From positions 70,644-134,643 of the IMG/VR virus record IMGVR_UViG_3300013102_000003: DNA of 64,000 nucleotides. The stretch is one strand, 5' to 3'. Both the position numbers and the translations under genes were made by a program. This document shows, one piece after another, positions 23,677 through 44,329 of this stretch. Under the pieces are notes generated by a model. It had not been told where the DNA came from. It worked only from the letters and a program-made list of their open reading frames with translations, and did no database searches. Numbering within the stretch: the first letter of the stretch is position 1; each line of letters opens with the position of its first letter. Source of the DNA: a virus (taxonomy: Duplodnaviria > Heunggongvirae > Uroviricota > Caudoviricetes).

Positions 23677-23730
23677 GTTACAAAAATAGTTATCCACAGG
23701 TTGACAAACAACCGTCCAATACAGTATGAT
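23677..23730 (+). promoter_or_regulatory. GTTACAAAA box + DnaA box + promoter
   Basis: GTTACAAAAAT, TTATCCACA 23690-98, TTGACA 23701, TATGAT 23725. Confidence 0.6.
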
Positions 23731-23739
23731 AGGAATAGC

Positions 23740-23907
23740 GTGCCAAATCTCAACCCAGACAGAGTAGAGTCTGCCCTCCGTGATCTCATCAGCTATGTAG
23801 ACTATGATCTCCACAAGCAGCTTGAGTCCGATGAAGAGACAGGCGAGGATATCTACCCCGAGCTAGTCCAGCAGTTCATCGACAGCTATGAAGACGCTGA
23901 AGGCTAA
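23740..23907 (+). CDS. acidic hypothetical protein
   Basis: GTG after AGGAA, 55 aa. Confidence 0.7.
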   Translation: MPNLNPDRVESALRDLISYVDYDLHKQLESDEETGEDIYPELVQQFIDSYEDAEG

Positions 23908-23920
23908 CCCTCCAGTCTAA

Positions 23921-23969
23921 CACGAAAGGACCCTCCCAGTCAATAGCGACTTCGGGAGGGTCCTTCGTT
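23921..23969. terminator. bidirectional terminator between convergent genes
   Basis: GGACCCTCCC...GGGAGGGTCC stem. Confidence 0.7.
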
Positions 23970-23980
23970 GATGCCGGGTA

Positions 23981-24196
23981 CTACCCGGCCCGGCCTGCCG
24001 CCTCGATTACAAGGCCCTTGCAGTCCTCGCACAGATCCATCTCGAAGACGGTCGTGCTGCGGGTGTTTCCGCTGATGTGAAGCCAGCCGGGAGGTAGCTG
24101 GAACTTCTCGTTACGTGCCGGTGTCTTCTGGAGGTCCGTCTGTTCCTCCTTGTAGCAGCGGTCACAGGTGGTGAATACGACTTCCTTGCTGGCCAT
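23981..24196 (-). CDS. zinc-finger-like hypothetical protein
   Basis: TAGGAGG SD; CDRC and CEDC. Confidence 0.75.
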   Translation of the reverse strand: MASKEVVFTTCDRCYKEEQTDLQKTPARNEKFQLPPGWLHISGNTRSTTVFEMDLCEDCKGLVIEAAGRAG

Positions 24197-24210
24197 GATT
24201 CCTCCTAATG

Positions 24211-24222
24211 AATTTTTGTAAC
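24211..24222 (-). repeat. GTTACAAAAATT box directly upstream of SD
   Basis: reverse complement AATTTTTGTAAC. Confidence 0.6.
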
Positions 24223-24259
24223 TGACCCTTGTGCGGTGGCTCACACGATTGCTATGATC

Positions 24260-24430
24260 TTACTACCAACACAGGAGCGAACGGCTTTGTTGCGGTAGGA
24301 GGGTGTCGGAACCCTCCGTCAGATGAGGTCACCCGATTTGACTAGTCCCCCAACGTGCGGGTCGGGTGGCCTCTTCTCTGCCCAGAGAAAAGCCCCGGCT
24401 CCCCCAACGGGGCCGGGGCCTCTCCCTTCC
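24260..24430 (+). ncRNA. candidate structured ncRNA
   Basis: TTGTGC-18-TATGAT promoter, ACTACCAAC leader, three hairpins, no ORF. Confidence 0.4.
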
Positions 24431-24433
24431 GGA

Positions 24434-25828
24434 CTATGCCGGTTCTACGGCCTCACCGGGTGCCTCGTTGAGGTACACCAGCTTGTAGAGCGTGCCGTAG
24501 AGGCCTGTCTGACCGGCGAAGCCAGCACCGAAGCTCGTCCACGGGTTTCCGGGCTTCTTCTCCCAGTCCACCTGACCAAGCTTGCTGACCTGTGAGGCCA
24601 CAGAGGAATTGAATTCCTCTACTGTATGGGACTGATCCAGCGCCGTCCCGATGATGTCCGCTCCGAGCCGTGACACGGATGCCACGCCTGCCAGATCCTT
24701 GAGGCGGTACTTGACTGCCTCTTCCACGGACTCGCCGTCGTCACCGACCACGACTCGCGGACGGTCCTGCCATGCCGGGGCGCATGTCCGGGCAACGAGT
24801 TCCCAGTAGCGCTTGACCACCTTGTCGAGAACAAGGCCGCGATTCTCCAGCCGAGCAACCAGCTTCTCGTGGAGCATGTTGCCGGTGGCCCGTCGCAGGC
24901 CCTCGTAGGTGATGGGCTTCTCCGGATCACGTGCGCCCGTCATGTTGATCATGCCGTGCCACGGGGAGTCCCCGTCCTGTGCCAGATCGAACGCAACCTC
25001 ACGGATGAGTTGCTGGTGCGTCTTCTCACCGGCCTCCATGTGGACCTTCGTGGCCTCGATCAGAGCCTTGGGCAGCTTTCGTGCCGTCGAGTTGATCGTG
25101 TCGAACAGCGTGGCCTCGTCGGCGTAGCGCAGTCCGTAGTAGAGCATGACCGGAATGTCCGGGTTGAAGGAAGCCTTGCGCTCCCATGCCCAGAACAACC
25201 CGCCTCCACGGTGCTGCCCGTCCACGATGGAGACACAGGACGGCCCGAACTCCTTGTGGATGGTGGCGATCTCGCCCTTGTTGAACAGGTGGTTGAACCG
25301 TGCCTGATCCTTGGGGTTGTACACCCGGACGGATGCAATGATCGGGGTGATGAGGTGGGCGTGAGTGTGCTTCTGCTCTTCGCCGTCTCCCTCTTCCTGA
25401 GAGAAGTAGCGGCCAATGGCCGGGAACCGAGCTTCCAGCGGGTCGCGCTGGTAGCCGTGCTGGCGGGGGCTGGAGGACTGCTCGTCCACGGAGTTGTACG
25501 TGGAGATGAAGGCGAGATCGTGCAGCGCATCCGCCGTCATCGTGGCGAGTGCCGCCTTGCCGGGAACGAATTCCGCCTGAATCGACAGGCGGGTCTCCTT
25601 GACGAACGTGGCCTCTTCCGGCTCTTCCGGTGCGGGCAGGCCCTCCGTGTCCACGGTCTCGTCGGCGTTGTCCGAGAACATCGGATCGACTGCCGGTGCG
25701 GGCTTGTTGACCTTCGGAAGAAGTTCCGAGACCGACTCGGTGCGGACCTCTGCGGCTTCTGCCTTTTCGAGGTTGGCTTTGCGGGTGGCTGCTGCCTTCT
25801 GGCCTCGGGTGAGAGTCTGAGCGTTCAT
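24434..25828 (-). CDS. DGQHR-domain (DndB/ParB-like) protein
   Basis: VSIVDGQHR motif; LITPII..VR; F.TINS; AAAGGA SD before ATG 25828. Confidence 0.75.
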   Translation of the reverse strand: MNAQTLTRGQKAAATRKANLEKAEAAEVRTESVSELLPKVNKPAPAVDPMFSDNADETVDTEGLPAPEEPEEATFVKETRLSIQAEFVPGKAALATMTADALHDLAFISTYNSVDEQSSSPRQHGYQRDPLEARFPAIGRYFSQEEGDGEEQKHTHAHLITPIIASVRVYNPKDQARFNHLFNKGEIATIHKEFGPSCVSIVDGQHRGGGLFWAWERKASFNPDIPVMLYYGLRYADEATLFDTINSTARKLPKALIEATKVHMEAGEKTHQQLIREVAFDLAQDGDSPWHGMINMTGARDPEKPITYEGLRRATGNMLHEKLVARLENRGLVLDKVVKRYWELVARTCAPAWQDRPRVVVGDDGESVEEAVKYRLKDLAGVASVSRLGADIIGTALDQSHTVEEFNSSVASQVSKLGQVDWEKKPGNPWTSFGAGFAGQTGLYGTLYKLVYLNEAPGEAVEPA

Positions 25829-26803: not shown

Positions 26804-26860
26804 GTTACAAAAATTGATACGGACACCGGACTTGACACGGATGCGGATGCCGGGTAGTAT
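26804..26860 (+). promoter_or_regulatory. box + promoter unit
   Basis: TGA-GTTACAAAAATTGATAC; TTGACA-17-TAGTAT. Confidence 0.7.
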
Positions 26861-26955
26861 GGGTTATGCGGGTGCCCCAAGCCCGCCCCTCAGGAGATCC
26901 AGCCTCACACTTACCCGAGGCTGGATCTCTTCTGAATCTACCGGAAGGAGATGCC

Positions 26956-27204
26956 GTGAAGAAGACCAAGGAGAAGATCCTGCTCGCCCTCGAACAGGAC
27001 GTAGTCAATGCCGAGATGGATATGGCGCGCTGGCAGGATGCGGTGAAGCGCTACAATGCCGACCTTCTGTTCCAAGAGGAACAGGGATTCACACCGAACG
27101 CACTCACCATAGAGTCCCGTGCCGCTGCCAAGGAAGCACTGGACCGAGCAAAGGAAACCCGCCGCCTCTACACTGTTGCCGTAGATGCCGTGCGGAAGGC
27201 CTAG
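26956..27204 (+). CDS. coiled-coil hypothetical protein
   Basis: GAAGGAG SD, GTG. Confidence 0.7.
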   Translation: MKKTKEKILLALEQDVVNAEMDMARWQDAVKRYNADLLFQEEQGFTPNALTIESRAAAKEALDRAKETRRLYTVAVDAVRKA

Positions 27205-27272
27205 TTGACAATGCCGTAACCATAGGGTAGTGTTCCTCTCATCAACCATCCGTACCGATGAAAGGAACTCAA

Positions 27273-27716
27273 ATGTCAACTCAATTCCAGCCCGCCCCGC
27301 CAATGCCGTCCTACCAGCCACAGGCCCCGAAGCCGAAACCCAAACGGGCTTGGCTGCTGCCGCTGCTTCTCGTTGCCGCCATCCTCGTGGGCTTCGGAGT
27401 CGGTGCCGCCAAACCGGCTCCCGATCCGGTGACCATCACCAAGGAAGTCCCGGTCGAGAAGATCGTGGAGAAACGGGTCGAAGTCCCGGTGACTCCTGCC
27501 GCTTGCGGTGACTACATCGAGGCCTCCAGCACGGTCAATGACATTTCCTCCACGGTCGTCGGCCTCTTGTCGGACACGCTCTCTGCCGCCGTCGATCTGG
27601 ATGCGGCTAAGATCCGGGCCAACAACGCCAAGGTCGATGCGGAGACGGCCAAGCTCAAGGACATCACGCCGGAATTCCAGTCCACCCGTGACGAATGCAA
27701 AGCCAGCCTCAAGTAG
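27273..27716 (+). CDS. membrane-anchored exported protein
   Basis: GAAAGGA SD; Pro-rich N-terminus, one TM, C...C pair. Confidence 0.8.
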   Translation: MSTQFQPAPPMPSYQPQAPKPKPKRAWLLPLLLVAAILVGFGVGAAKPAPDPVTITKEVPVEKIVEKRVEVPVTPAACGDYIEASSTVNDISSTVVGLLSDTLSAAVDLDAAKIRANNAKVDAETAKLKDITPEFQSTRDECKASLK

Positions 27717-27778
27717 TTGCGGTGCGGCTGATGCCGTGATAGTCTATGAGCATCAGCCCACCACAACAGGAGGAAATC

Positions 27779-27958
27779 ATGGCAACAACCATTTTCCCGG
27801 TAACGCTTTCCGGCAAGGTCCATGCCGCGTTCGTCTTGGACTACCAGACGGACAAGTGGGCTACCATGTGCGGAAGGCAGGTACCTGACCCCACTGCCGT
27901 AGAGCACAGGGTTGCCGAAGTAACCTGCCGCAAGTGTTCCGAGAATTTGACACGGTAG
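27779..27958 (+). CDS. small zinc-binding-like protein
   Basis: AGGAGG SD; H..C..CxxC. Confidence 0.75.
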   Translation: MATTIFPVTLSGKVHAAFVLDYQTDKWATMCGRQVPDPTAVEHRVAEVTCRKCSENLTR

Positions 27959-27981
27959 TTGAAGGGGCATAGACTATAACC

Positions 27982-28317
27982 ATGTTCGAAAGAATCCAGC
28001 CCGAGACTACTCCGGCCCAGCCCACCGCTCCCGAAGAAGAAGGACCCACCTTGAAGCACATTGCCGCCGTACTCATCATGATCTCGTTGTTCCTGATCGT
28101 CACGTTCAACGCCATCCACGTCGGCTTCGTCTGGACGGATACCCACTTCAAGGGCGTCGAGCAGACCGACAGCATCCAACGCGCCAAGGACAGGTACCAG
28201 TCGCAGGTCGAGGATGCACGGACACGGTGCATCGACAAGGTTGCTGCCAAGGCCAAGGGCTTCGAGAACGTCACGCTTGACATGTGCCAGAAGGTCACAT
28301 ACACTAGGGATTACTAA
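27982..28317 (+). CDS. membrane protein (leaderless)
   Basis: TTGACA-17-TAGACT; one TM. Confidence 0.75.
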   Translation: MFERIQPETTPAQPTAPEEEGPTLKHIAAVLIMISLFLIVTFNAIHVGFVWTDTHFKGVEQTDSIQRAKDRYQSQVEDARTRCIDKVAAKAKGFENVTLDMCQKVTYTRDY

Positions 28318-28340
28318 CCACCAACGTCCTAGGAGGACCA

Positions 28341-28580
28341 GTGTTCAAGGATTACAAGAAGGGCCAGCGGGTCCGGATCTATCTCGAAGAGATTGGCAGT
28401 ATCTTCGGCACCATCGTGCAGGATCACCAGATCGCAAACCATCTCGAACTGGTCCACATCGACGGAACCCGTACGGTTGACCACCGCTGGCTTCCCAACG
28501 ACATCATCTGGGCTGAGCACTGGGAAGGTCAGTACGCTTTGGAGCGCGTCTCGGATAGCCGTTTGACACAGCCGCTGTAG
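28341..28580 (+). CDS. SH3-like small protein
   Basis: GTCCTAGGAGGAC SD; YKKGQRVRI. Confidence 0.75.
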   Translation: MFKDYKKGQRVRIYLEEIGSIFGTIVQDHQIANHLELVHIDGTRTVDHRWLPNDIIWAEHWEGQYALERVSDSRLTQPL

Positions 28581-28622
28581 TGCCGTAGGCTATAACTACC
28601 AACTAGTCCTGAGGAGGACACC

Positions 28623-28958
28623 ATGACCACCCTGAATGATTGCCTTGACTTGTACGCCGACTACCAGACCGAGATCGAGAACGACAAGATCGAGGGCTAC
28701 CGGCTCAAAGAAGCTCCGTGCCTCTCGGAAGAGATCACCTCCAAGCGGGCCACCGAGTACATGCTCAAGTACGACGGACGGCTGCGGCGCGTCTACAACT
28801 TCGAACAGGCGTCCGGGACTTCGCGCATGTACATCAACACGGACGGCGGCTACTGGAAGCGCTTCCTCACGGAAGAGGCCGTGGCCATGCTCATTGCTGG
28901 CAACCCGAGCTACGAGCGCTTGACTCTCGTCGCCCAGTTGGTTAGGGTTGCAGCATGA
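28623..28958 (+). CDS. hypothetical protein
   Basis: GAGGAGGAC SD. Confidence 0.8.
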   Translation: MTTLNDCLDLYADYQTEIENDKIEGYRLKEAPCLSEEITSKRATEYMLKYDGRLRRVYNFEQASGTSRMYINTDGGYWKRFLTEEAVAMLIAGNPSYERLTLVAQLVRVAA

Positions 28959-29299
28959 ACAGCAACCAGAAGCCCATCGAAGTAACCTTCCGTAACGGCT
29001 CTACCGTCCGGACCCTCGTTGACCCGGACAGGCTTACCGTCTACCTCGGAAACCTTGTCATGGACGACATCACCGGCATCAAGTACGGCGGCGACGTTCC
29101 AGAACCTGCCGTCGAGGTACGGCTGAGTAACGTGGACATTCACGCCTCACGTGACCGGACCACCATGGACCTGACCTTCTTCAACAAGGACGACAAGCAG
29201 GCCGCGTACATCAAATCCACTCCGGCCAGCATTCAGGAATTCGCTATCCGGCTTCTCAACCAGACGACCTACGCCTTTCAGGACTTGGCAAACCGGTAG
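28955..29299 (+). CDS. hypothetical protein
   Basis: ATGA overlap; TAG fused to box. Confidence 0.8.
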   Translation: MNSNQKPIEVTFRNGSTVRTLVDPDRLTVYLGNLVMDDITGIKYGGDVPEPAVEVRLSNVDIHASRDRTTMDLTFFNKDDKQAAYIKSTPASIQEFAIRLLNQTTYAFQDLANR

Positions 29300-29358
29300 T
29301 TACAAAACTTCATAACGGTAGAGCGGGGCTTGACGGCTCCGCTCTACTGCTGTAGTGT
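29299..29358 (+). promoter_or_regulatory. box + hairpin-loop promoter unit
   Basis: CGGTAGAGCGGGGC-TTGACG-GCTCCGCTCTACTG; -10 TAGTGT. Confidence 0.85.
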
Positions 29359-29398
29359 ATGAGTATCAGCTAGTCACCGACCAACACAGGAGGAAACA

Positions 29399-29668
29399 AT
29401 GTCAGACCTCACCATCGAAGCCACGGTTATCACCCAGTCCGGTACGGACCTCACTCCGGTCGCCGTCAAGATCAACGGAACCGGCTCCATCCCGAACGGC
29501 GCACTCCGGGCCATTGCTATGGAAGCGCTCGCCACCTTCACCGGGAGCCACGAGTCCCACCATGGCTTCAAGGTTGAGGCCGAACCGTCCTTCAAGGAAG
29601 AGATGGACGACACCATCTCCATCTTCCCGGTGTTCCGGTCGCTGGTCCGGTCCGAAGTTCCCTGCTAG
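29399..29668 (+). CDS. hypothetical protein
   Basis: AGGAGG SD. Confidence 0.8.
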   Translation: MSDLTIEATVITQSGTDLTPVAVKINGTGSIPNGALRAIAMEALATFTGSHESHHGFKVEAEPSFKEEMDDTISIFPVFRSLVRSEVPC

Positions 29669-29729
29669 TTACAAAAATTGATACGGCACCGGAGTTGACA
29701 CATAGACTACGGTGCCGTATCGTTGTAAC
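29668..29729 (+). promoter_or_regulatory. box + hairpin-loop promoter unit
   Basis: GATACGGCACCG/CGGTGCCGTATC stem; TTGACA-17-TATCGT. Confidence 0.85.
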
Positions 29730-29754
29730 TACCAACCCAACAACGGAGGACACC

Positions 29755-29988
29755 ATGGCAGCAATGACAGCAATGACCGACACCGAGGCCGCAAAGGTCA
29801 TCGAAGAGATGTTCGAGACTGCTGTAGAGGATGTACGGGAACTCTACCGCCGCATCGAAGAACTGCGGAAGGACTTCCAGACCGACCCGTGGGAGGATAC
29901 GGCGGCGCAGATCAAGCGCCTTGAGGCCCGCCACGCAAAGCGGGCAAAGGAAGCTGCGGCACTGGCCATAGCGTCCATGAAGTTCTAG
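29755..29988 (+). CDS. coiled-coil hypothetical protein
   Basis: GGGAGGAC SD. Confidence 0.8.
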   Translation: MAAMTAMTDTEAAKVIEEMFETAVEDVRELYRRIEELRKDFQTDPWEDTAAQIKRLEARHAKRAKEAAALAIASMKF

Positions 29989-30043
29989 TTACAAAACTTC
30001 ATAGTCTAGGGCGGTTGACACCACAGCCGTCCTAGACTAGAGT
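29988..30043 (+). promoter_or_regulatory. box + hairpin-loop promoter unit
   Basis: TAGTCTAGGGCGG/CCGTCCTAGACTA; TTGACA-17-TAGAGT. Confidence 0.85.
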
Positions 30044-30081
30044 TAGTACTACCAACACAGCAACAGTCCTAGGAGGACAAA

Positions 30082-30495
30082 ATGAGCATCGAAACCGATT
30101 CCCGCGTTAACATCTCCGACCTCTCCACCCGCGCCGAAGAGTGCGCGGACATTCTGGAAGATCCGGAGCAGTACGAACCGGAGGACATTGACGAGGCCAA
30201 CGCGGACCTCAAGATCCTTGGGGACTTCGTCGGCAACTGCAACCACTCGTACGATCCGGAGGACCCTCACAGCATCGTGTCGGCTCTGGACAGCATCGGA
30301 CAGGATGAGGACACTCTCATCTCCGAAGACACGTTCGAGGACTACGCACAGGAATACGTCGAAGACTTCGGACTCATCCCGGACACCCTCTCCGACCTCA
30401 TCAAGACCAACATCGATTGGGCCGGAGTCGCCAACGACCTGCGGTCCGACTTCTCTTCGGTGACGCTGGACGGCGTGGACTACCTCCACCGCTGA
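30082..30495 (+). CDS. ArdA-like antirestriction (DNA mimic) protein
   Basis: very acidic; FEDYAQEYVEDFG..P..L..NIDW..VANDL..D resembles ArdA C-terminus. Confidence 0.6.
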   Translation: MSIETDSRVNISDLSTRAEECADILEDPEQYEPEDIDEANADLKILGDFVGNCNHSYDPEDPHSIVSALDSIGQDEDTLISEDTFEDYAQEYVEDFGLIPDTLSDLIKTNIDWAGVANDLRSDFSSVTLDGVDYLHR

Positions 30496-32024: not shown

Positions 32025-32030
32025 ATAACT

Positions 32031-37581: not shown

Positions 37582-37637
37582 TTACAAAACTTCATAGGAG
37601 CGGCGGACTAGACAATGGTCCGCCGTTCCTGTAGATT
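37581..37637 (+). promoter_or_regulatory. box + hairpin-loop promoter unit
   Basis: AGGAGCGGCGGACTA/TGGTCCGCCGTTCCT; TAGACA-17-TAGATT. Confidence 0.8.
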
Positions 37638-37672
37638 TGTTCTATCAGCCGATGAAGTCCTAGGAGGACAAA

Positions 37673-37900
37673 GTGAACAAGCGAGCCGCCGAAAAGGTAC
37701 TGGAAGAAGTCAAGGAACAGTTCGGAACGGATGAACCGGCCCTGTACGACGCCGACCACGAAGAGCTTTCGGAAGGCTCTTGGTCTATCGCGTGGGAGGG
37801 CAGCGGTATGGACTGCTGGCCTGCACACTTCAAGACGGAAGTTCCGGGAGTGTTCACGGAGCCTATCGCGTCGTGGTGCCTCGGAGTCTACGACGCGTAA
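37673..37900 (+). CDS. acidic hypothetical protein
   Basis: TAGGAGGAC SD, GTG. Confidence 0.8.
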   Translation: MNKRAAEKVLEEVKEQFGTDEPALYDADHEELSEGSWSIAWEGSGMDCWPAHFKTEVPGVFTEPIASWCLGVYDA

Positions 37901-37953
37901 CAAAACTTCATAGGGCCGGTGGATTGGACAACAGTCCACCGGTCCTGTAGTCT
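37897..37953 (+). promoter_or_regulatory. variant box (GTAACAAAACTTCA) + hairpin-loop promoter
   Basis: AGGGCCGGTGGATTG/CAGTCCACCGGTCCT; TGGACA-17-TAGTCT. Confidence 0.8.
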
Positions 37954-38000
37954 TTACTTATCGGATCAACCGAATCCGCTGAATGTCCTAGGAGGACAAA

Positions 38001-38345
38001 ATGTCTGATCGTATCTCCCGCGCCGACGTTGTTGCAGCTACCGCGTGGCTCCAGAAGGAAGCGCACCGGCTCGAAATCCTCCCGCGTGATGCCTACCTCG
38101 TTTTCTCACCCGGCAACACGAGTCAGGGCCACTCGCCGGAAGTGTCCGTGTTCCTGACCGAACCGGCCAGCAACGGACGCCAGACAATGCGCGTCAACTT
38201 CCTGCCCGCGTTCACCTACAAGACCACACGTAAGCAGGCGTGGCAGCTTATCAACGCGGCAGCGCGTGCACTGGCAGCGGTGCCCACGCGGGAAGACCCG
38301 ATCATGTGCAACGAGTGCATCGAATACAACGACCGTCAGGTCTAG
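38001..38345 (+). CDS. hypothetical protein
   Basis: TAGGAGGAC SD. Confidence 0.85.
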   Translation: MSDRISRADVVAATAWLQKEAHRLEILPRDAYLVFSPGNTSQGHSPEVSVFLTEPASNGRQTMRVNFLPAFTYKTTRKQAWQLINAAARALAAVPTREDPIMCNECIEYNDRQV

Positions 38346-38402
38346 TTACAAAACTTCACTACGGTCCTAGGTGTTGCGCCTAGGGCCGTAGTGCTGTAGT
38401 CT
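38345..38402 (+). promoter_or_regulatory. box + hairpin-loop promoter unit
   Basis: CACTACGGTCCTAGG/CCTAGGGCCGTAGTG; TTGCGC-17-TAGTCT. Confidence 0.85.
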
Positions 38403-38445
38403 ATCTATATCGGTTCAACCGGAACCGCCAAGCTTAGGAGTCACC

Positions 38446-38733
38446 TTGAAGACTGAAGTCAAGTTCACTGCATCCGTCAACAACGCGGACACGGAGGAAG
38501 AGTTCCACGGTTGGGTAGATCCCCAGTACAGCATGTGGACGCTGTTCGAGGATGAACCGGAGCGCCGCTACGTGTTCGACACGCGGGAAGAGGCGGAAGA
38601 GTTCGTTGACTCCACAATCGGAAGTGCGGACCACTTCGACGGCGAAGACTGGTACGCGGCGGATGCCAAGATGAACTTGGAGTCCGGCGAAGACTGGTCC
38701 TACCATGCACGGTTCTACGAAGTCTCAGAGTAA
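38446..38733 (+). CDS. very acidic hypothetical protein
   Basis: TAGGAG SD, TTG. Confidence 0.8.
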   Translation: MKTEVKFTASVNNADTEEEFHGWVDPQYSMWTLFEDEPERRYVFDTREEAEEFVDSTIGSADHFDGEDWYAADAKMNLESGEDWSYHARFYEVSE

Positions 38734-38740
38734 CACCAAC

Positions 38741-38770
38741 GAAAGGCCCTGCTACGGCAGGGCCTTTCTT
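38741..38770 (+). terminator. intrinsic terminator
   Basis: GAAAGGCCCTGC-TACG-GCAGGGCCTTTC+TT. Confidence 0.8.
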
Positions 38771-38942
38771 GTGTCTGCGGGAGGCTACGCGGGCTGCTGT
38801 AGGGCCTTGGACGTGCTGGCAGGCACCGGAGGGCAGGGAGCGCGTGGAAGGCTCTTAGAACGGCTGCTAGCCGTGTTTGACACGCGGCAGGGTCATAGAC
38901 TAAGCTGGTGGTAAGCGAAAGAACAATACACTAAAGGGGAAG

Positions 38943-39179
38943 ATGATGGACGGCAAGAAATTCCAGATCACGACGTTCGAGGACTGGACGGACAAGCGCC
39001 AGCCGGGGCAGACAGTGCGGGCCGGACTCTCGTGGGAAGAGGCTCTAAAGCACCTTGAGTCGGCGCGTGACGCTGATATCGACTTCGCGTTGGAGTCGAT
39101 GAAGGTTCACAAGTTCTACGAGTTCCACGACGCCAGCGGACGTATCGTGAAGCTGCAACCTCACACGGTAGTTGCGTAA
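38943..39179 (+). CDS. hypothetical protein
   Basis: TTGACA/TAAGCT promoter; AAGGGGA SD. Confidence 0.75.
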   Translation: MMDGKKFQITTFEDWTDKRQPGQTVRAGLSWEEALKHLESARDADIDFALESMKVHKFYEFHDASGRIVKLQPHTVVA

Positions 39180-39231
39180 GCGGCGAACATAGGCTAAGCT
39201 GGTATTACCAACAAAGCCTAGGAGGCACAAA

Positions 39232-39489
39232 ATGATCGCACTGGACGCTATTCACCGGGACCGTCACACTGAGGACATCACGGGAGTGACTTTCAAGATC
39301 ACCGGGGAGGACGTGAACCGCGACAACGACAAGCTACACGCCGAACTGCGGCAGCGCATCCAAGACATGCGCGTGACGATGGACATCCCCGAGCTTCCCG
39401 AATACTCCGGATGGATTCAGCCCAACTACCGCGAAGGGCAGGGGAGCATCGACTACCTGCTCATGAGCTACACAGTCGAAGGCTTCTAG
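39232..39489 (+). CDS. hypothetical protein
   Basis: TAGGAGG SD. Confidence 0.8.
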   Translation: MIALDAIHRDRHTEDITGVTFKITGEDVNRDNDKLHAELRQRIQDMRVTMDIPELPEYSGWIQPNYREGQGSIDYLLMSYTVEGF

Positions 39490-39544
39490 TTACAAAACTT
39501 GGAAGGGCCGTCAGCTTGCGCTGGCGGTCCTTTTCGCGTACGCT
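39489..39544 (+). promoter_or_regulatory. box + hairpin-loop promoter unit
   Basis: AAGGGCCGTCAGC-TTGC-GCTGGCGGTCCTT; TTGCGC-17-TACGCT. Confidence 0.8.
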
Positions 39545-39550
39545 GGTACT

Positions 39551-39694
39551 ATGAAGCTCCGGAGGCAGGGGAACCAGAGGACCCCTTTTGTAAATGGGCG
39601 GTTACAAAAATTGATAGCGCGGGCTGGCTTGACTCTGGTCATAGACTATGAGAAGATTGATTTATCAAGCAGGGAGCTTGAGGAACTGACTTAG
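39551..39694 (+). CDS. possible leaderless 47-aa peptide
   Basis: ATG 6 nt after TACGCT; overlaps next box and promoter. Confidence 0.35.
   Translation: MKLRRQGNQRTPFVNGRLQKLIARAGLTLVIDYEKIDLSSRELEELT
39586..39634 (+). promoter_or_regulatory. head-to-head box pair + -35
   Basis: TTTTGTAA-8 nt-TTACAAAA; TTGACT 28 nt after box. Confidence 0.55.
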
Positions 39695-39702
39695 GAGTCA
39701 CA

Positions 39703-40008
39703 ATGGGATTCACGATCACCCACTCTTCCCTCGAAGGCGACAACATGGGCGAGAAGCTGGAGAAGCTGGAAGTGCCCCGCGTTTACGGCACCAGCCCTGC
39801 TGAGCGTGAGAGCATCCGCGACGGCAAGGCGGGCAAGGGAACCCACTTCAAGCTCTACGACGACGACGACAACTGCTACTTCACCGGCTACTTCTACGGC
39901 GATGCAGACTCGGAGGATGCATTCCAGCCGCTCGACTGGGCAACCCACGACGCCGGATGCACTTACATCAAATACCGTCAGGCAGACGGCAAGTACGAAA
40001 CCCTCTAA
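39703..40008 (+). CDS. hypothetical protein
   Basis: GACTTAGGAGTC SD. Confidence 0.8.
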   Translation: MGFTITHSSLEGDNMGEKLEKLEVPRVYGTSPAERESIRDGKAGKGTHFKLYDDDDNCYFTGYFYGDADSEDAFQPLDWATHDAGCTYIKYRQADGKYETL

Positions 40009-40040
40009 GGAATGGGCCGGGAAACCGGCCTTTCCTTTTG
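40009..40040 (+). terminator. intrinsic terminator
   Basis: GGCCGG-GAAA-CCGGCC+TTTCCTTTT. Confidence 0.75.
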
Positions 40041-40208
40041 TCCACGGCCCAATTATTTTGTGGCTCCCCTCGTTTCCCTGCTGGTGGGCTTCATGTATTC
40101 AGTCTAAGCGCGGAACGCGTGAAAGTCAATACCGCGTTGGAGTTGCGTTGTGCTCTAGAGTATGAGAGTATTGATTCATCAGCAAGACGAAGTCCTTAGG
40201 AGGATACC

Positions 40209-40466
40209 ATGAAGTCAGTCAAGAGCAACGAACTCGAAGCCGGTACGTGGGCCGCACACGCGCACGATCTCCCCAACTGCGGAGGAATTCAGATCGGTTT
40301 GCAGGGTGAGGTTGTGGAAGTCAAGCACACCGATATGTGGGGAGTTGCTTCCGAGACCCACACAACGGTCTACCTCCGGGAACGTGGCGCGGACAAGTAC
40401 GACGTGAAGGTTCGCACGTTCCACAACTCGCACACGTGGCTGGTGCGTACGCTCCCGACGCACTAG
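40209..40466 (+). CDS. hypothetical protein
   Basis: TAGGAGG SD. Confidence 0.8.
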   Translation: MKSVKSNELEAGTWAAHAHDLPNCGGIQIGLQGEVVEVKHTDMWGVASETHTTVYLRERGADKYDVKVRTFHNSHTWLVRTLPTH

Positions 40467-40467
40467 A

Positions 40468-40523
40468 GTTACAAAACTTTCTTACACTCCGGAGTAGACA
40501 ACTGCTCCGGAGTGTGAGAGTAT
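40468..40523 (+). promoter_or_regulatory. box + hairpin-loop promoter unit
   Basis: CTTACACTCCGGAGTAG-ACAA-CTGCTCCGGAGTGTGAG. Confidence 0.75.
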
Positions 40524-40560
40524 TACTTATCGGAACAATCCGAATGACTTAGGAGTCACA

Positions 40561-40761
40561 ATGGAAACTGATTACTCGTACGGACGCTGGTGCACGGTAG
40601 CAGAGCAGCGTTGGATGATCGTGGACTCTGGCCGGTGGACGGTAGCAGTCTACGACGACAACGAAAAGCGCGTACGGCTCTTCGACAAGTCCGTTGTCTC
40701 GGAAGTCTCGGACTTCCTGCTGACAGACTCGCAGCGGGCAGCCCTCGGGTACGCGTTCTAG
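40561..40761 (+). CDS. hypothetical protein
   Basis: TGACTTAGGAGTCA SD. Confidence 0.8.
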   Translation: METDYSYGRWCTVAEQRWMIVDSGRWTVAVYDDNEKRVRLFDKSVVSEVSDFLLTDSQRAALGYAF

Positions 40762-40817
40762 TTACAAAACTTCACACGGTACGGGGACTTGCAAGAGTCC
40801 CCGTACTCGTGTAATGT
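40761..40817 (+). promoter_or_regulatory. box + hairpin-loop promoter unit
   Basis: GTACGGGGACTT-GCAA-GAGTCCCCGTAC; TTGCAA-17-TAATGT. Confidence 0.85.
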
Positions 40818-40862
40818 CTTTCTTAACGGAGCAACCGGCTCCCAAAGATTCTTGGAGGAATC

Positions 40863-41105
40863 ATGAAGCGCAACATGTACACACTGGTCCTGAACGTTCC
40901 GGCCTCGGTCCGTGAGTCGGAAGAGCGCTTCGACTTCGAACCGCTGTCTTGGTGGATTCGGCAGGAAGATGGAACCTCCAACGTCCACCAGCGTGTGTAC
41001 TTGGACGGTGGCCGGTTGTTCGGAGAGTCTGACAAGTATCAGGAAGGCCTGAGCGACGTTGTGAGGGACTTTGACCGGTTCGTGAGCCTCACACCCATCC
41101 GCTAG
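40863..41105 (+). CDS. hypothetical protein
   Basis: GGAGGA SD. Confidence 0.8.
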   Translation: MKRNMYTLVLNVPASVRESEERFDFEPLSWWIRQEDGTSNVHQRVYLDGGRLFGESDKYQEGLSDVVRDFDRFVSLTPIR

Positions 41106-41168
41106 ATTCTAGACCTCGGGAGAGGCCTTAGGGCCTCTCCCATCACCCTCTCAAACTTAGGAGCAGTA

Positions 41169-41829: not shown

Positions 41830-41908
41830 ACACTACGGCAGCGGGAGAGTGTTGTCAACACAAAGCAATAGCCCCACCCTTTCGGGTGAGGCTATCAACT
41901 TTTGTAAC
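41830..41908 (-). promoter_or_regulatory. box + GAAA-loop terminator + separate promoter
   Basis: TA-GTTACAAAAGTT; hairpin 41867-95; TTGACA-17-TAGTGT. Confidence 0.8.
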
Positions 41909-42117
41909 TAGAGGCTGTCCTGTTGGTAGGTGAACATCCCGCCGGAACCTTGGATGAAGATGTAACCGCGTCCGTCGAGGCATTCAGACACGTAGTCCGG
42001 ATCATTCGGATACATCCGCGCTGCCAGTTCGTAGACCTCGTTGTCCGGCTTGTCTTCGAGTCGCATCGACTCGCCGTACTCGCCGTCAGACTTGAGCGGC
42101 TTGAAGAATACCTTCAT
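41908..42117 (-). CDS. hypothetical protein
   Basis: AGAAGAGAGAAC leader. Confidence 0.75.
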   Translation of the reverse strand: MKVFFKPLKSDGEYGESMRLEDKPDNEVYELAARMYPNDPDYVSECLDGRGYIFIQGSGGMFTYQQDSL

Positions 42118-42156
42118 GGTGTTCTCTCTTCTCTGTGGAGTTGTGCTTACCCTCAT

Positions 42157-42226
42157 AGACTATGCCCTTTGGTTCGGGCTGTCAAGCCGATAGGCCCTCC
42201 GGAGAGGGCCTATCAACTTTTGTAAC
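42157..42226 (-). promoter_or_regulatory. box + terminator hairpin + separate promoter
   Basis: GATAGGCCCTC-4 nt-GAGGGCCTATC; TTGACA-17-TAGTCT. Confidence 0.8.
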
Positions 42227-42432
42227 TACTCGCCGTCCCACCAGTCCTGCTCGCCGCAGTAGTCATCCTGTTCGTCGGAGTTGCAGGCGGGGCATTCGTC
42301 CGTGCATCCCGCCGTGCTGTAGATGTAGAACCACTCTCCGGAGAACCGGGATTGGGTCGGGGAGACAATGCGCTGGTGGCCTGCCGCGTCCATGTAGACC
42401 TTGTCGCCGGGGTATTCGGTGAACGTGTTCAT
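42226..42432 (-). CDS. small acidic Cys-rich protein
   Basis: GCTDECPACN. Confidence 0.75.
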   Translation of the reverse strand: MNTFTEYPGDKVYMDAAGHQRIVSPTQSRFSGEWFYIYSTAGCTDECPACNSDEQDDYCGEQDWWDGE

Positions 42433-42479
42433 GTTCGTCTCTTCTCTGCTCTGTGGAGTTGTGAACTGCTTATGTAGAT

Positions 42480-42536
42480 ACTCTAAGGCAGGAACAGGGA
42501 GCGTGTCAACTCCCCGTCCCTGTGAACTTTTGTAAG
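42480..42536 (-). promoter_or_regulatory. variant box + hairpin-loop promoter
   Basis: CTTACAAAAGTTCA; TTGACA-18-TAGAGT. Confidence 0.75.
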
Positions 42537-42539
42537 TCC

Positions 42540-42716
42540 TTAGAGCTTCGTGGAGCGGTTGCGTATGAAGTCCTGCACGGACTCGTTGCGCGACTCCTGA
42601 ATGCTGGTTAGGCGGCGCTCTGTGAGGCGTTCACGCTCGCCAGCGTCGAGGTATGAGACAAACTCAACGAACGCGGGAGAGAGCAAGGGAGCAGTCTTTA
42701 CAGTCTTGGCAGGCAT
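42540..42716 (-). CDS. hypothetical protein
   Basis: 58 aa ORF in leftward block, weak SD. Confidence 0.5.
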   Translation of the reverse strand: MPAKTVKTAPLLSPAFVEFVSYLDAGERERLTERRLTSIQESRNESVQDFIRNRSTKL

Positions 42717-42826
42717 GGGAGGCGTCCTAACGCGTTGGGATGGGTTGGATGGGTGAGAGTGGCCGGTGAGTGGTTTGAAGCCGTTAGGCGGGCAGACAGA
42801 CCCCGTAGGGCCTGCCTGCCGGTTGC

Positions 42827-43105
42827 CTAGTCGCAGCAGTCGCGGGAGGTGCAGTTGTGGTTGTGCAGGTTGCAGGATGATTCGGTGAGGATTCCCTCAG
42901 TGGATTCGTCGCGGTCCAACTCTTCGAAGAAGATCTCTTCGTCGCTGCCTTCGGTGCACTCGGCGCACGTTCCGGCTTCGTTGGCGTACGTCTCGCAGTT
43001 CTCGCAGCGGAACAGTGGCGGGCAGTCGCATTCGTCGCCGTACGGGCTGGCGTTCTCCCACGCGGACTGAGCGGAGCGGAAGCCGTAAGAGGAAGTGATC
43101 GACAT
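42827..43105 (-). CDS. Cys-rich acidic protein
   Basis: GAAAGGA SD; CDC, CENC, CAEC, CC. Confidence 0.75.
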   Translation of the reverse strand: MSITSSYGFRSAQSAWENASPYGDECDCPPLFRCENCETYANEAGTCAECTEGSDEEIFFEELDRDESTEGILTESSCNLHNHNCTSRDCCD

Positions 43106-43144
43106 GGTGTCCTTTCGTGGCCGGTGCATCCGGCTCATGAGTAA

Positions 43145-43191
43145 AGACTATGCCCTATCGGGCCGAGTGTCAAACTGTGAAGATTTGTAAC
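43145..43191 (-). promoter_or_regulatory. variant box + promoter
   Basis: GTTACAAATCTTCA; TTGACA-17-TAGTCT. Confidence 0.7.
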
Positions 43192-43244
43192 GGGCAGACC
43201 CTCCGGAGTGGAGAGCCTGCCCGTCGAATCAAGAGAGTGTGGGC

Positions 43245-43343
43245 CTAGCGGCCTGCCTGTAAGGTTGCCTTCCACTTGGAGAGCAGAGCGGCAGCGACTC
43301 CATAGAACGGGAGAGTGTGGGCGATACGTGAGAAAAGCTTCAT
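43245..43343 (-). CDS. 32-aa peptide
   Basis: GGAGGACAC SD, own promoter. Confidence 0.6.
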   Translation of the reverse strand: MKLFSRIAHTLPFYGVAAALLSKWKATLQAGR

Positions 43344-43386
43344 GTGTCCTCCGTTGGGTTGGCTGGCTTGGTAGGCCAGTAACTAC

Positions 43387-43445
43387 AGCCTAAGGCACCG
43401 GCTCGCGGGATGCAAGCCGGTGCCGCTGCTATTACTTTTTGTAAG
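43387..43445 (-). promoter_or_regulatory. variant box inside upstream CDS + hairpin-loop promoter
   Basis: CTTACAAAAAGT; GGCACCGGC/GCCGGTGCC; TTGCAT-17-TAGGCT. Confidence 0.7.
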
Positions 43446-43770
43446 TCAGCACGTGCCACGTGCGCGGGAGGTTCACGGACGGAACGATAACCTCATGTGC
43501 GCGGTGCGCCGGTCGCGTGTGCACGGTGCGTACGTAGGTCAGCACGTGCTTCCGGTCATAGCGCGGTACGTGCTTCATGTACTCCATCGATTCCCACGCG
43601 TCCCCAATTGTCTTGACGCTGCCCTTGCACTGCTTGACTCCCAGAGTGTCACAGTCCCACGTGTGGGCTGCGGTGGGCGTGTTGGTGGCTGCGGTGGCCG
43701 GGAGAGTGGTACCGGCTGCGATAAGCAGGGCTGCGGTGGCTGCGGTGGCGAGCTTTGCAAGGATGTTCAT
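43432..43770 (-). CDS. secreted protein
   Basis: AGGAGA SD; Sec-type signal peptide ending ATA/ATAA. Confidence 0.75.
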   Translation of the reverse strand: MNILAKLATAATAALLIAAGTTLPATAATNTPTAAHTWDCDTLGVKQCKGSVKTIGDAWESMEYMKHVPRYDRKHVLTYVRTVHTRPAHRAHEVIVPSVNLPRTWHVLTYKK

Positions 43771-43811
43771 GATTCTCCTGTTGGTTGGTACTGCTTGGTT
43801 GGTACTCTTAT

Positions 43812-43868
43812 AGACTAAGGCATGCCGACCCGAGATGCAAATCGGCATGCCCTAGCAAGTTTTGTAAC
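43812..43868 (-). promoter_or_regulatory. box + hairpin-loop promoter unit
   Basis: CTAGGGCATGCCGAT/GTCGGCATGCCTTAG; TTGCAT-17-TAGTCT. Confidence 0.85.
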
Positions 43869-44230
43869 TACGCGTCTTGCAAGGTATCCCACTTGAAGAC
43901 GTGGAACGCGTTAGGGAGAGTGTTGGACTCTACAGCGAAGTAGCCTGCACCTGCTGGCAGGTTCTCGGGCTGGCCGGTGACTGTCTCGACGTAGGAGAGC
44001 ATGAGGTTCTTGGAGTCCTCGGGAGCGTGGATGTTGGCTGTCTCAATGGCGTTCCATGCGTCCGTCTTGAGCGTGTCAGCCTGTCCGTTACCCATAGTCG
44101 CCGCATCCCAACATGCGTCCTCTTCGTGGCAGACAGTCTGTGTAGTCGCTGTAGGCGCGGCATCCGGTGCTGGTGAGGGTGAGCCAAGGATCACTGAGAG
44201 GGAGATGATGAGGGCTGTGATGAGGGACAT
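43868..44230 (-). CDS. secreted/membrane-anchored protein, paralog of 43432-43770
   Basis: AGGAG SD; hydrophobic N-terminus. Confidence 0.75.
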   Translation of the reverse strand: MSLITALIISLSVILGSPSPAPDAAPTATTQTVCHEEDACWDAATMGNGQADTLKTDAWNAIETANIHAPEDSKNLMLSYVETVTGQPENLPAGAGYFAVESNTLPNAFHVFKWDTLQDA

Positions 44231-44272
44231 GATGACTCCTGACCTGTGATGCACCCTGTGTGCATATGTATG

Positions 44273-44329
44273 ACTCTAGTGTATGTATGCCTTATGTGCA
44301 AGATGTGAATCACTATGAATTTTTGTAAA
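44273..44329 (-). promoter_or_regulatory. variant box + promoter heading the leftward block
   Basis: TTTACAAAAATTCA; TTGCAC-17-TAGAGT. Confidence 0.7.

Follow-up and report, generated by a model that had tools for sequence, protein, structure and literature searches.

The genome carrying the features described here is that of a large Arthrobacter-type phage (168.6 kb), and the window is the whole stretch of 64,000 nucleotides that was analysed. It was found that an A-rich ten-base box, TTACAAAA, occurs 35 times in the window against 0.62 copies expected, and none of 100 shuffles reaches 35; the recurring box of the original prediction is real. GTTACAAAAWT with at most one mismatch occurs 33 times in the window against 0.53 expected. 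The whole genome has 38 box copies, almost all of which lie inside 20.4-44.3 kb of the window. The box core reads (T/A)ACAAAA(A)-n-TT, where the C in ACAAAA is invariant and the TTAC part tolerates TAAC. Downstream of each copy, the best TTGACA / 16-19 nt / TAnnnT arrangement was scored as the promoter, and spacing was measured from the box G to the -35 (offset) or from n, the base after the A-run, to the -35 (n distance). The features are as follows; in the text, some copies are named by a coordinate at or beside the box.

20411..20421 (-): box without stop or hairpin, possibly in coding sequence; -35 TTGACC 20383, -10 TATGAT 20360; n distance 30 (far class)
23678..23688 (+): box TTACAAAAATA without stop or hairpin; -35 TTGACA 23701, -10 TATGAT 23725; offset 24, out of class
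24211..24221 (-): box inverted relative to a + promoter in a divergent intergenic region, 16 nt before -35 TTGTGC 24229; 18-nt spacer, -10 TATGAT 24253
26804..41110 (+): rightward single-gene cassette array, gene content patchy and reordered among relatives
Array unit order (+): stop codon, box, hairpin around the -35, -10, CA-rich leader, AGGAGG, small ORF
26805..26815 (+): box, TGA ending 1 nt upstream, weak hairpin; -35 26832, -10 26855; n distance 19
29300..29310 (+): box, fused TAG; -35 29330, -10 29353; n distance 22, widest of the main class
29669..29679 (+): box, fused TAG; -35 29695, -10 29718; n distance 18
29989..29999 (+): box, fused TAG; -35 30015, -10 30038; n distance 18
30497..30507 (+): box, TGA ending 1 nt upstream; -35 30524, -10 30547; n distance 19
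31132..31142 (+): box, fused TAG; -35 TTGCAT 31159, -10 31182; n distance 19
31567..31577 (+): box, fused TAG; -35 31593, -10 31616; n distance 18
31970..31980 (+): box, fused TAG; -35 31996, -10 32019; n distance 18
32445..32455 (+): box, fused TAG; -35 TAGACA 32471, -10 32494; n distance 18
32952..32962 (+): box, fused TAG; -35 TTGCAC 32980, -10 33003; n distance 20
33336..33346 (+): box (copy 33335), fused TAG, then a terminator only, AAAAATT pairing with AATTTT across hairpin 33347-33379; no promoter within 60 nt after the box
34168..34178 (+): box, fused TAG; -35 34195, -10 34218; n distance 19
34601..34611 (+): box, fused TAG; -35 TGGACA 34627, -10 34650; n distance 18
35191..35201 (+): box, fused TAG; -35 35218, weak -10 GAAGCT 35241; n distance 19
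35829..35839 (+): box, fused TAG; -35 35857, -10 35881; n distance 20
36147..36157 (+): box, fused TAG; -35 TGGACA 36173, -10 36196; n distance 18
36772..36782 (+): box, fused TAG; -35 TTGCGA 36799, -10 36822; n distance 19
37229..37239 (+): box, fused TAG; -35 37256, -10 37280; n distance 19
37582..37592 (+): box, fused TAG; -35 TAGACA 37609, -10 37632; n distance 19
37898..37908 (+): variant box TAACAAAACTT, TAA stop within the box; -35 TGGACA 37925, -10 37948; n distance 19
38346..38356 (+): box, fused TAG; -35 TTGCGC 38374, -10 38397; n distance 20
39490..39500 (+): box, fused TAG; -35 TTGCGC 39516, -10 TACGCT 39539; n distance 18
39602..39612 (+): box without stop or hairpin, directly after a terminator-like T-tract; -35 TTGACT 39629; n distance 19
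40469..40479 (+): box, TGA ending 1 nt upstream; -35 TAGACA 40495, -10 40518; n distance 18
40762..40772 (+): box, fused TAG; -35 TTGCAA 40789, -10 40812; n distance 19
41835..44329 (-): leftward cassette block, convergent with the rightward array
41897..41907 (-): box (copy 41908), fused TAG, GAAA-loop terminator hairpin, separate perfect promoter; -35 41858, -10 TAGTGT 41835; n distance 41
42215..42225 (-): box (copy 42226), fused TAG, terminator hairpin, promoter; -35 42185, -10 TAGTCT 42162; n distance 32
42525..42535 (-): box, TAA 4 nt upstream; -35 42509, -10 42485; n distance 18
43180..43190 (-): variant box TTACAAATCTT without hairpin; -35 TTGACA 43173, -10 TAGTCT 43150; offset 18, near class (about -43)
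43434..43444 (-): box in the last CDS codons (Y-K-K-stop); -35 TTGCAT 43415, -10 43392; offset 30
43857..43867 (-): box, fused TAG; -35 TTGCAT 43840, -10 43817; n distance 19
44318..44328 (-): box of the first leftward promoter, without stop or hairpin; -35 TTGCAC 44301, -10 TAGAGT 44278; n distance 19

The box was also found in six relatives, namely the Arthrobacter phages Racecar and Atuin and four IMG/VR metagenomic contigs, and was absent from Pumpernickel, a Microbacterium phage relative. The six relatives keep the box core, although their array proteins share 33-80% identity and occur patchily and in altered order. When 23 array ORFs were compared with five related loci, 8 had no relative and the rest were 33-80% identical and reordered, with conserved flanking modules. 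This hyperplastic array, as well as the PeSL-mediated shuffling documented in T4-like phages (PMC2839356, PMC4122927), would suit a box kept mainly as a signal for recombination or cassette exchange, whose place before the -35 was inherited from an ancestral cassette and not selected. I consider this very unlikely. Homologous exchange requires more than 10-12 nt of identity, no recombinase could be tied to the box, and descent alone leaves the three phased distance classes and the inverted copies described below unexplained. Moreover, copies share a mean pairwise identity of 0.95 in the box, 0.71 in the -35, 0.64 in the -10 and 0.39 in the hairpin arm; the arms between box and -35 have diverged, yet the distance is unchanged.

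In most copies, terminator and promoter are packed as tightly as possible into one cassette, whose 5′ edge is marked by the box; the first box base is also part of the upstream gene's stop codon. The stop codon and a strong hairpin are set apart by the 12-nt box, and the hairpin sequence differs from copy to copy. The loop holds the -35, the 3′ arm is the 17-nt spacer, and the T-rich -10 region follows the stem. Of the stop codons scored as overlapping the first box base, all 23 are TAG, whereas TAG makes up 36% of stop codons in the rest of the genome, and one cassette absent from the earlier list of copies (37898-37908, variant GTAACAAAACTT) has a fused TAA. Stop codons abut the first base of the module. 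Elsewhere, 11 promoter-like sites without a box have the stop codon of an ORF of at least 60 codons ending 0-1 nt upstream of the -35.

Is the distance between the box and the promoter constant? The offset is 27 in nine copies, 28 in 11 and 29 in three, with 30 at 43445 and 31 at 29299, and rescoring gave the same values as before. As claimed earlier, copies 39601 and 44329 keep the spacing without a stop codon or hairpin (both at 28), copy 43445 in the last codons of a CDS does so at 30, and copies 43191 and 23677 are nearer to the -35 (18 and 24). The other exceptions are 39 (20421), 41 (42226), 50 (41908) and none (33335). The last three had been described as promoterless; this holds for 33335, but 41908 (TTGACA-17-TAGTGT) and 42226 (TTGACA-17-TAGTCT) have perfect promoters past their terminator hairpins. 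The n distance is 17-20 nt in 26 of the 33 promoter-bearing window copies (binomial P 7e-24 against a uniform 55-nt range) and in 69 of the 75 hairpin cassettes pooled from the seven phages. In the window, this n distance corresponds to the 27-31 nt first measured from the start of the box. The 15 hairpin-less copies of the seven phages fall into three classes of n distance (8-12, 17-19 and 25-30), about 9-9.5 bp apart rather than 10.5; nine of 11 off-class values lie within two side windows (P about 6e-6), although these windows were picked post hoc and some copies are possibly orthologous. The counterparts of the 39602 promoter in Racecar (16623) and G002 look alike and are probably orthologous, with the spacing kept. 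A rigid spacing of 27-31 nt without a hairpin, as originally predicted, is not supported: it was seen in three of the six hairpin-less window copies, and hairpin-less distances fall instead into the three classes, which are about one helical turn apart.

The relatives provide further arrangements. The Atuin TTAC-type copies 10407, 11576, 12639 and 15667 all follow a T-tract or a separate terminator, and their distance to the -35 is 26-29 nt in three of the four and 17 at 15667. Two promoters (Atuin 15170/15149 and G005 1186) have doubled boxes 19-21 bp apart. In inverted boxes upstream of promoters, n is 18-23 or 10-14 nt from the -35, with the AAAA-n-TT centre near -54 or -46. The box keeps its place when a terminator lies upstream, when it is duplicated and when it is inverted, which supports the predicted link to promoter position.

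These arrangements also bear on whether the box acts mainly in the RNA or in termination, as an A-tract extending the hairpin, an antisense U-tract, or a 12-nt spacer between ribosome and hairpin. In the pooled hairpin cassettes of the seven phages, the stop codon is fused to the box in 58 of 72 and the stem begins 12-14 nt later, and six cassette hairpins pass a terminator scan. The boxes at 33335 and 41908 pair with a downstream U-tract, and the inverted box at 42226 coincides, on the + strand at 42215..42225, with the T-tract of a predicted terminator. All of these would fit such a role. On the other hand, hairpin-less copies without an upstream gene hold promoter-phased positions, RNA from inverted copies would differ, and 95% sequence identity is more than an A-tract or a spacer requires. 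Several Atuin boxes lie past a complete terminator and would therefore rarely be transcribed. A mainly RNA-level function is improbable, and the box may, as was allowed for at first, have an added RNA or termination role besides its putative role as a promoter element.

When the -35 hexamer is presumed to start at -35, the predicted position of the AAAA-n-TT centre is near -54, or alternatively near -43 or -62. The box thus lies nearer to -54 than to the -60 first proposed. The alpha-CTD sites are centred near -43, -53 and -63 (proximal, distal and far-distal), and good distal subsites typically consist of an A-tract and then a T-tract (PMC3326320). The predicted centres of the box appear close to these docking positions. 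Since the centre lies near -54, and one turn nearer or farther in hairpin-less copies, the box is most likely of the UP type; I give about even chances that it is an UP-like upstream element of PeSL-like terminator-promoter cassettes flanking variable, presumed early small genes. It would be recognised in double-stranded DNA and serve one class of SigA-type promoters as their upstream element; its A-tract-then-T centre lies some 54 bp before the predicted start or, in hairpin-less copies, may lie one helical turn nearer or farther. Through a putative contact with alpha-CTD, it would recruit the host polymerase and stimulate transcription of about 35 small variable genes, presumably early, and the hairpins would terminate transcription. 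As for the two candidates named at first, a class I activator site or a distal UP element, the terminator-downstream, phased, doubled and inverted copies favour the distal UP element over an orientation-specific class I site.

Like the box, the distal subsite of the UP element of E. coli rrnB P1 has an A-tract and then Ts near -54 (PMC3326320). The UP element also resembles the box in its alternative positions about one turn away (-43, -62), in tolerating inversion, and in lying upstream of a TTGACA / 17 nt / TAnnnT core. However, the UP element is merely A/T-rich, while the box hardly varies, its C and its flanks being fixed; the region of the proximal subsite is occupied by a GC-rich hairpin arm in the phage cassettes; and the phage host is an actinobacterium. 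To my knowledge, UP elements are poorly documented and little studied in Actinobacteria. Counter to the UP-like reading, the boxes at 41908 and 42226 remain beside their stop codon and terminator at 41-50 nt from the -35, the box at 33335 is present without any promoter, and the distance classes are spaced by about 9-9.5 bp instead of 10.5. About 30 strong box-less promoter candidates of the same genome show no upstream A/T enrichment, so the box is dispensable for promoter function in general.

Could the box instead be the site of a dedicated sequence-specific protein, host-encoded, virion-delivered or made early? This is a possibility that I hold less likely, and equally so the suggestion that such a protein would switch the cassette set on, or shut it off later, as at class I or stoperator sites. 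As alpha-CTD contacts no specific bases, UP elements usually have a degenerate sequence (PMC3326320), so the 95% identity of the box, above that of the -35 or -10, and the invariant C in ACAAAA fit a sequence-specific protein better. The core is common to seven diverged phages, the box is confined to one promoter class of the genome and missing from Pumpernickel, and the face-of-helix classes would also suit an activator touching the polymerase. Yet the site is asymmetric and is found in both orientations and at three distances, helical phasing is needless for a pure repressor site, and the tolerance of TAAC argues against a strictly base-specific reading of the TTAC half. No candidate protein was identified, and if the promoters are immediate-early, an activator would be needed before any phage protein is made. 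Cluster A mycobacteriophages, which are temperate, have repressor sites called stoperators (L5 gp71 sites), which block elongation and are not known to be phased to a -35. Like the box, they are short, asymmetric, conserved actinophage sites in many short intergenic regions beside stop codons, mostly oriented with transcription; unlike them, the box is promoter-phased, sometimes inverted and without a known repressor. Class I activator sites, such as those of CRP at -61.5 and -71.5, also lie upstream on one helix face at discrete allowed distances, but the box is non-palindromic, centred nearer -54 than -61.5, and without a known activator.

With the UP-like reading, the box cassettes most likely vary a design already known from phages rather than constitute a new type of system. 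The T4 early 'UP/-35/TGn/-10' promoters (Hinton 2010, PMC2988021) are likewise many strong host-type promoters with a conserved upstream A-rich element. Both phages are large and of lytic type, and in both the element would capture the host polymerase, presumably early in the box phage; the phage lineage and host differ, and the box is more sharply defined. No Alt-like modification of alpha was seen in the box phage: the gene that carries an ADP-ribosyltransferase annotation in relatives scores there as a Macro domain. The PeSL cassettes of T4-like phages (Arbiol 2010, PMC2839356; Comeau 2014, PMC4122927) also repeat a terminator together with an early promoter; an AT-rich stretch precedes the -35, and the modules flank small variable ORFs in a hyperplastic region. 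In PeSL, the stem-loop, AT-rich region and promoter lie side by side, whereas in the box cassettes, which are found in actinophages, the box comes first and overlaps the stop codon, and the hairpin after it is wrapped around the -35.

The box is a repeated A-rich motif with the core (T/A)ACAAAA(A)-n-TT, in which n is the base right after the A-run, and its copies are named here by start position. The copies were aligned on the box, and the best downstream promoter was scored as TTGACA / 16-19 nt / TAnnnT.

Distance from the box G to the -35 hexamer for the box copies in the window
27 nt: 9 copies
28 nt: 11 copies
29 nt: 3 copies
30 nt: copy 43445
31 nt: copy 29299
18 nt: copy 43191
24 nt: copy 23677
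39 nt: copy 20421
41 nt: copy 42226
50 nt: copy 41908
Promoter absent: copy 33335

The offsets of 27-31 nt that had been measured by hand for most copies were reproduced by this scoring, including 30 nt at 43445 and 31 nt at 29299, and copies 23677 and 43191 do lie closer to the -35, as had been stated. The original prediction regarded 33335, 41908, and 42226 as promoterless exceptions. This is true for 33335, but 41908 and 42226 are followed by TTGACA-17-TAGTGT and TTGACA-17-TAGTCT, respectively, after terminator hairpins. The offset was also said to be fixed where the hairpin is absent; the window has six hairpin-less copies, of which only three lie at 28 nt. Anchoring on n gives a narrower spacing than anchoring on the box start, with n lying 17-20 nt before the -35 in 26 of 33 copies (P = 7e-24 against a uniform range). 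Furthermore, I found an additional cassette at 37898-37908 (GTAACAAAACTT, with a TAA stop within the box) that was missing from the earlier list, and an inverted box at 24211-24221 that lies 16 nt upstream of a plus-strand promoter. About 30 strong promoter candidates in the genome have no box, and these show no upstream A/T enrichment.

The window covers bases 70644-134643 of a virus contig of 168,556 bp, which has direct terminal repeats and a G+C content of 55.5%. The portal protein of this virus shares 64-67% identity with the portal proteins of Racecar, Mimi, Talia1610, and Atuin, which infect Arthrobacter globiformis and have genomes of about 194 kb, and 43-47% with those of large Microbacterium phages. 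The whole genome has 38 box copies, nearly all at window positions 20.4-44.3 kb, and the box word is the most frequent 9-mer of the genome. In the window, TTACAAAA occurs 35 times against 0.62 expected, and GTTACAAAAWT with up to one mismatch occurs 33 times against 0.53 expected. The top repeated word of Racecar is the same box. It was also found in Atuin and in four IMG/VR contigs (G001, G002, G003, and G005) that were obtained by a portal protein search, while it was not found in the first 32 kb of Microbacterium phage Pumpernickel. The named hosts of the box phages are all A. globiformis, and the host of the box-less relative examined is Microbacterium.

The box region is an array of small genes starting next to a minus-strand DndB/ParB-like gene, and the left ends of Racecar and Atuin have the same layout. 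For eight of the 23 array ORFs in window 28955-40761 (66-197 aa), no relative was found in five related phage loci, while the others are 33-80% identical to relatives there, with changed order and patchy presence. The region is hyperplastic, and its genes are ORFan-like. A megablast search of a phage collection with 8 kb of the array gave no match, and a cassette query in the blastn 'distant' mode matched the Racecar group only. The exact pattern TAGTTACAAAAYTTSA gave only single chance hits among the matches listed from IMG/VR, where no relatives of the DndB/ParB-like neighbour gene were found. A tblastn search with the Atuin endolysin for unrelated Arthrobacter phages matched Atuin alone, and one search of genome contigs with the phage PRPP-synthetase-like protein matched Bacteroidota only. 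Literature searches gave no description of the box motif or of promoters in these phages.

The array-head gene (24434-25909, minus strand) is 61% identical to Racecar gp5, annotated as 'ParB-like nuclease domain'; its product has a Pfam DndB match (PF14072, E = 8e-11) and a weak ParB-like PHROG match. The 173-aa product of 51140-51661 (plus strand) is an ortholog (34-35% identity) of Racecar and Atuin proteins annotated as 'ADP-ribosyltransferase'. Since the window ortholog scores as a Macro domain in Pfam (E = 4.6e-8), the label in Racecar and Atuin may be wrong, and no link to Alt-like ADP-ribosylation is claimed.

A typical cassette consists of a stop codon over the first box base, the 12-nt box, a hairpin, the -10, a leader, AGGAGG, and the start codon of a small ORF. 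The hairpin (13-19 bp, -25 to -40 kcal/mol) has most of the -35 in its loop and the 17-nt spacer as its 3' arm, while the -10 is TAGTCT, TAGTGT, TAGACT, or TATTGT. The predicted terminator and promoter occupy the same DNA, with the hairpin around the -35 and the -10 doubling as the U-tract. In the window, 25 copies have a hairpin (-25 to -35 kcal/mol) and a promoter-like -35/-10; the hairpin encloses the -35 in 23 of them and is a separate terminator ahead of the -35 in two. The 26th hairpin copy (33336) has no promoter. Six cassette hairpins satisfy a terminator rule, because the T-rich -10 region acts as a tail. In a simple scan, the array has 20 promoter-like sites against 6.5 expected. The stop codon overlapping the first box base is TAG in 23 of 23 cases, because the box begins with G; elsewhere in the genome, TAG accounts for 36% of stop codons. 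In three further copies, a TGA ends one base before the box, and one variant box uses an internal TAA.

The leader before AGGAGG is CA-rich (TACTACCAAC...). In most cassettes, such a leader lies ahead of AGTCCTAGGAGGAC, and that of the 31970 cassette (32022-32065) has at least seven ACCA/CCAA repeats. It may be a translation-enhancing or unstructured leader. In Racecar 6402-15394, several annotated genes begin at a TTG or GTG inside the cassette (box, hairpin, or -10 region), and their start codons have probably been annotated too far upstream.

A second class of promoters, without box and hairpin, exists genome-wide (for example, at window 9451, 11157, 11847, 27205, 54243, and 55360), and several of them have the extended form TGTACTGTAGTCTATGTAAGCA. 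Eleven box-less promoter-like sites follow an ORF of at least 60 codons whose stop codon ends 0-1 nt before the -35. Genes in this phage therefore run right up to the first base that matters in the promoter module behind them. In the array, this base is the start of the box, which suggests that the DNA between the box and the -35 is functional there.

Does the constant spacing come from hairpin geometry or common descent alone? From the seven phages (the window phage, Racecar, Atuin, and the four contigs), 141 forward box copies were pooled, 99 of which have a good promoter. The offset is 26-29 nt in 74 of these 99, with minor groups at 16-19 and 35-39 nt. A second pooling, anchored on n and made with a broader box pattern and a more stringent promoter score threshold, gave 75 hairpin cassettes and 15 hairpin-less copies. 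It was found that n lies 17-20 nt before the -35 in 69 of the 75 cassettes, while the hairpin-less copies fall into three classes (8, 8, 8, 10, 12; 17, 17, 19, 19; and 25, 26, 27, 27, 27, 30 nt), which are about one helical turn apart with a period of about 9-9.5 bp. Nine of the 11 off-class hairpin-less values lie in two side windows (P ~6e-6, although these windows were picked post hoc and some of the promoters may be orthologous). When copies were pooled separately by the TTACAAA pattern, the fused stop was found in 58 of 72 hairpin cassettes but in none of 24 hairpin-less copies. Thus, the splits in fused stop and in spacing tie the hairpin to the end of an upstream gene and the box to the promoter.

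Other arrangements of the box were found in these phages. Four TTAC-type copies of Atuin lie after a T-tract, three of them at 26-29 nt from the -35, and folding revealed a complete terminator hairpin before Atuin 12639 and 15667. Two promoters have double boxes 19-21 bp apart. The inverted box, AA-n-TTTTGTAA, is present in G003 and, as isolated copies, in other places such as window 24211-24221. In the inverted copies, n lies 18-23 or 10-14 nt from the -35, the centre of AAAA-n-TT is nearly unchanged, and several likewise carry a fused stop codon.

Work on upstream promoter elements is extensive for E. coli and Bacillus but very sparse for Actinobacteria. In 69 of 75 hairpin cassettes, the centre of AAAA-n-TT precedes the start of the -35 by 18-19 nt. 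If the -35 hexamer begins at -35, this places it at about -54 in the main class and at about -43 and -62 in the others. It is known that one alpha-CTD binds at a proximal subsite near -43 and the other at a distal subsite near -53, that the distal one can also use same-face sites at about -63 and beyond, that alpha-CTD reads the narrow minor groove of A- and T-tracts rather than specific bases, and that good distal subsites are marked by an A-tract followed by a T-tract (Rhodius et al., PMC3326320). The box resembles an UP element in its positions and its A-then-T form: an A/T tract lies between about -40 and -65, and the positions fall on one helical face (about -43, -53, and -63; windows chosen post hoc, period about 9-9.5 bp). 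A promoter-linked, distal-UP-like role is the best-supported reading of the box from the sequences at hand, and I would give it about an even chance. The original prediction of such a role is favoured to that extent, with the centre at about -54 instead of near -60. Together with the UP element and the PeSL cassettes described below, the T4 early 'UP/-35/TGn/-10' promoters (PMC2988021) are the closest known systems.

In contrast to UP elements, which are usually much less uniform, the box is not degenerate. The mean pairwise identity between copies is 0.95 for the box, 0.71 for the -35, 0.64 for the -10, and 0.39 for the hairpin arms, whose sequence varies freely. ACAAAA-n-TT is constant in all seven phages, while the preceding two bases vary (TT, TA, AT) and the A-run has four or five A, the extra A being absorbed on the upstream side. 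Since the box has been kept while the array proteins of the same phages have diverged and been reshuffled, its uniformity suggests that specific bases are read, and the reader would be a dedicated factor or an alpha-CTD stricter than that of E. coli. That the box is the binding site of a dedicated factor ranks second, as a tentative possibility: the uniformity speaks for it, but the inverted copies, with their indifference to orientation, are more in keeping with reading of groove shape than with an asymmetric activator site. It is rather doubtful, though conceivable, that the box labels about 35 insulated single-gene cassettes for a virion or host regulator that fires and later silences all of them at once; if so, the cassette architecture and its regulon would be new to actinobacterial phages. 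Stoperators are tied to a repressor and to orientation and not to promoter geometry, whereas the boxes are phased to the -35 in either orientation. Resemblances to a second -35 or -10 or to an IHF, GlnR, or RamB-like site are weak.

Some copies point to an RNA or termination role. At 33335, AAAAATT pairs with AATTTT across a hairpin to make a two-way terminator, which faces a minus-strand promoter at 33493. In the zone where two gene blocks converge, the 41908 box pairs with the U-tract and the inverted 42226 box is the T-tail of a predicted plus-strand terminator. The 12-nt gap between stop and stem would also hold a terminating ribosome off the hairpin. However, these roles are missing in the hairpin-less, post-terminator, and inverted copies and thus are not the common function. 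An RNA or termination role as the main function is unlikely, and such uses are plausible as extra ones beside the distal-UP-like role. The box proper is mostly unpaired in the folds; pairing of the box with the -10 region as the 5' foot of a long hairpin was rejected as the main explanation, since the stem regularly takes in just its 3' flank (TTCAyTA). A main function as a recombination signal is very improbable.

PeSL cassettes are terminator-promoter units with an AT-rich stretch ahead of the -35, beside variable ORFs in hyperplastic regions of T4-like phages (PMC2839356, PMC4122927). The present array is likewise made of repeated composite modules, each with a sigma-70-like promoter and a stable stem-loop terminator, around small, variable, and shuffled genes, and the box fills the place of the AT-rich stretch. 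In contrast, stem-loop, AT region, and promoter stand side by side in the PeSLs of T4-like myoviruses, whereas in these actinophages the hairpin encloses the -35, the box is 5' of the hairpin, and the stop codon overlaps the box. The cassette illustrates how far terminator and promoter can be compacted and could be an insulated expression part in Arthrobacter and related hosts. The phage group supplies over 140 natural copies of a single well-defined element, which differ in helical position (three), orientation (both), and the presence of an overlapping terminator, and these form a ready series to test how actinobacterial polymerase uses the DNA upstream of the -35. The cassettes also flag small candidate genes for host takeover and would improve start-codon annotation in Racecar-type genomes.

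Further sites lie near the boxes. At 39539-39600, a short conserved sequence, GGTA(C)TATGAAGC..., comes after the promoter of the 39490 cassette; it ends in a terminator-like hairpin, GGGG...CCCC-TTTTG, and the next box follows at once. Look-alikes are present in Racecar, G002, and G003, and this sequence of about 45 nt is a candidate for a small RNA or a leader peptide. At 33336-33535, the two-way terminator lies opposite back-to-back promoters, TTGACT at 33493 (minus strand) and TTGACT at 33507 (plus strand). The predicted transcript of about 110-130 nt from 33493 to the 33336 terminator is possibly an antisense or small RNA. A perfect palindrome, GTTTCACGTGAAAC, was found just upstream of the boxes of leftward promoters in four of the relatives, while the window has only chance hits with two mismatches.

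Copies of the palindrome GTTTCACGTGAAAC
Atuin: 15672-15683 and 16196-16207
G005: 186-318, three copies
G002: 1398-1409
Racecar: 20316-20327

This palindrome is a candidate operator for a dimeric regulator.
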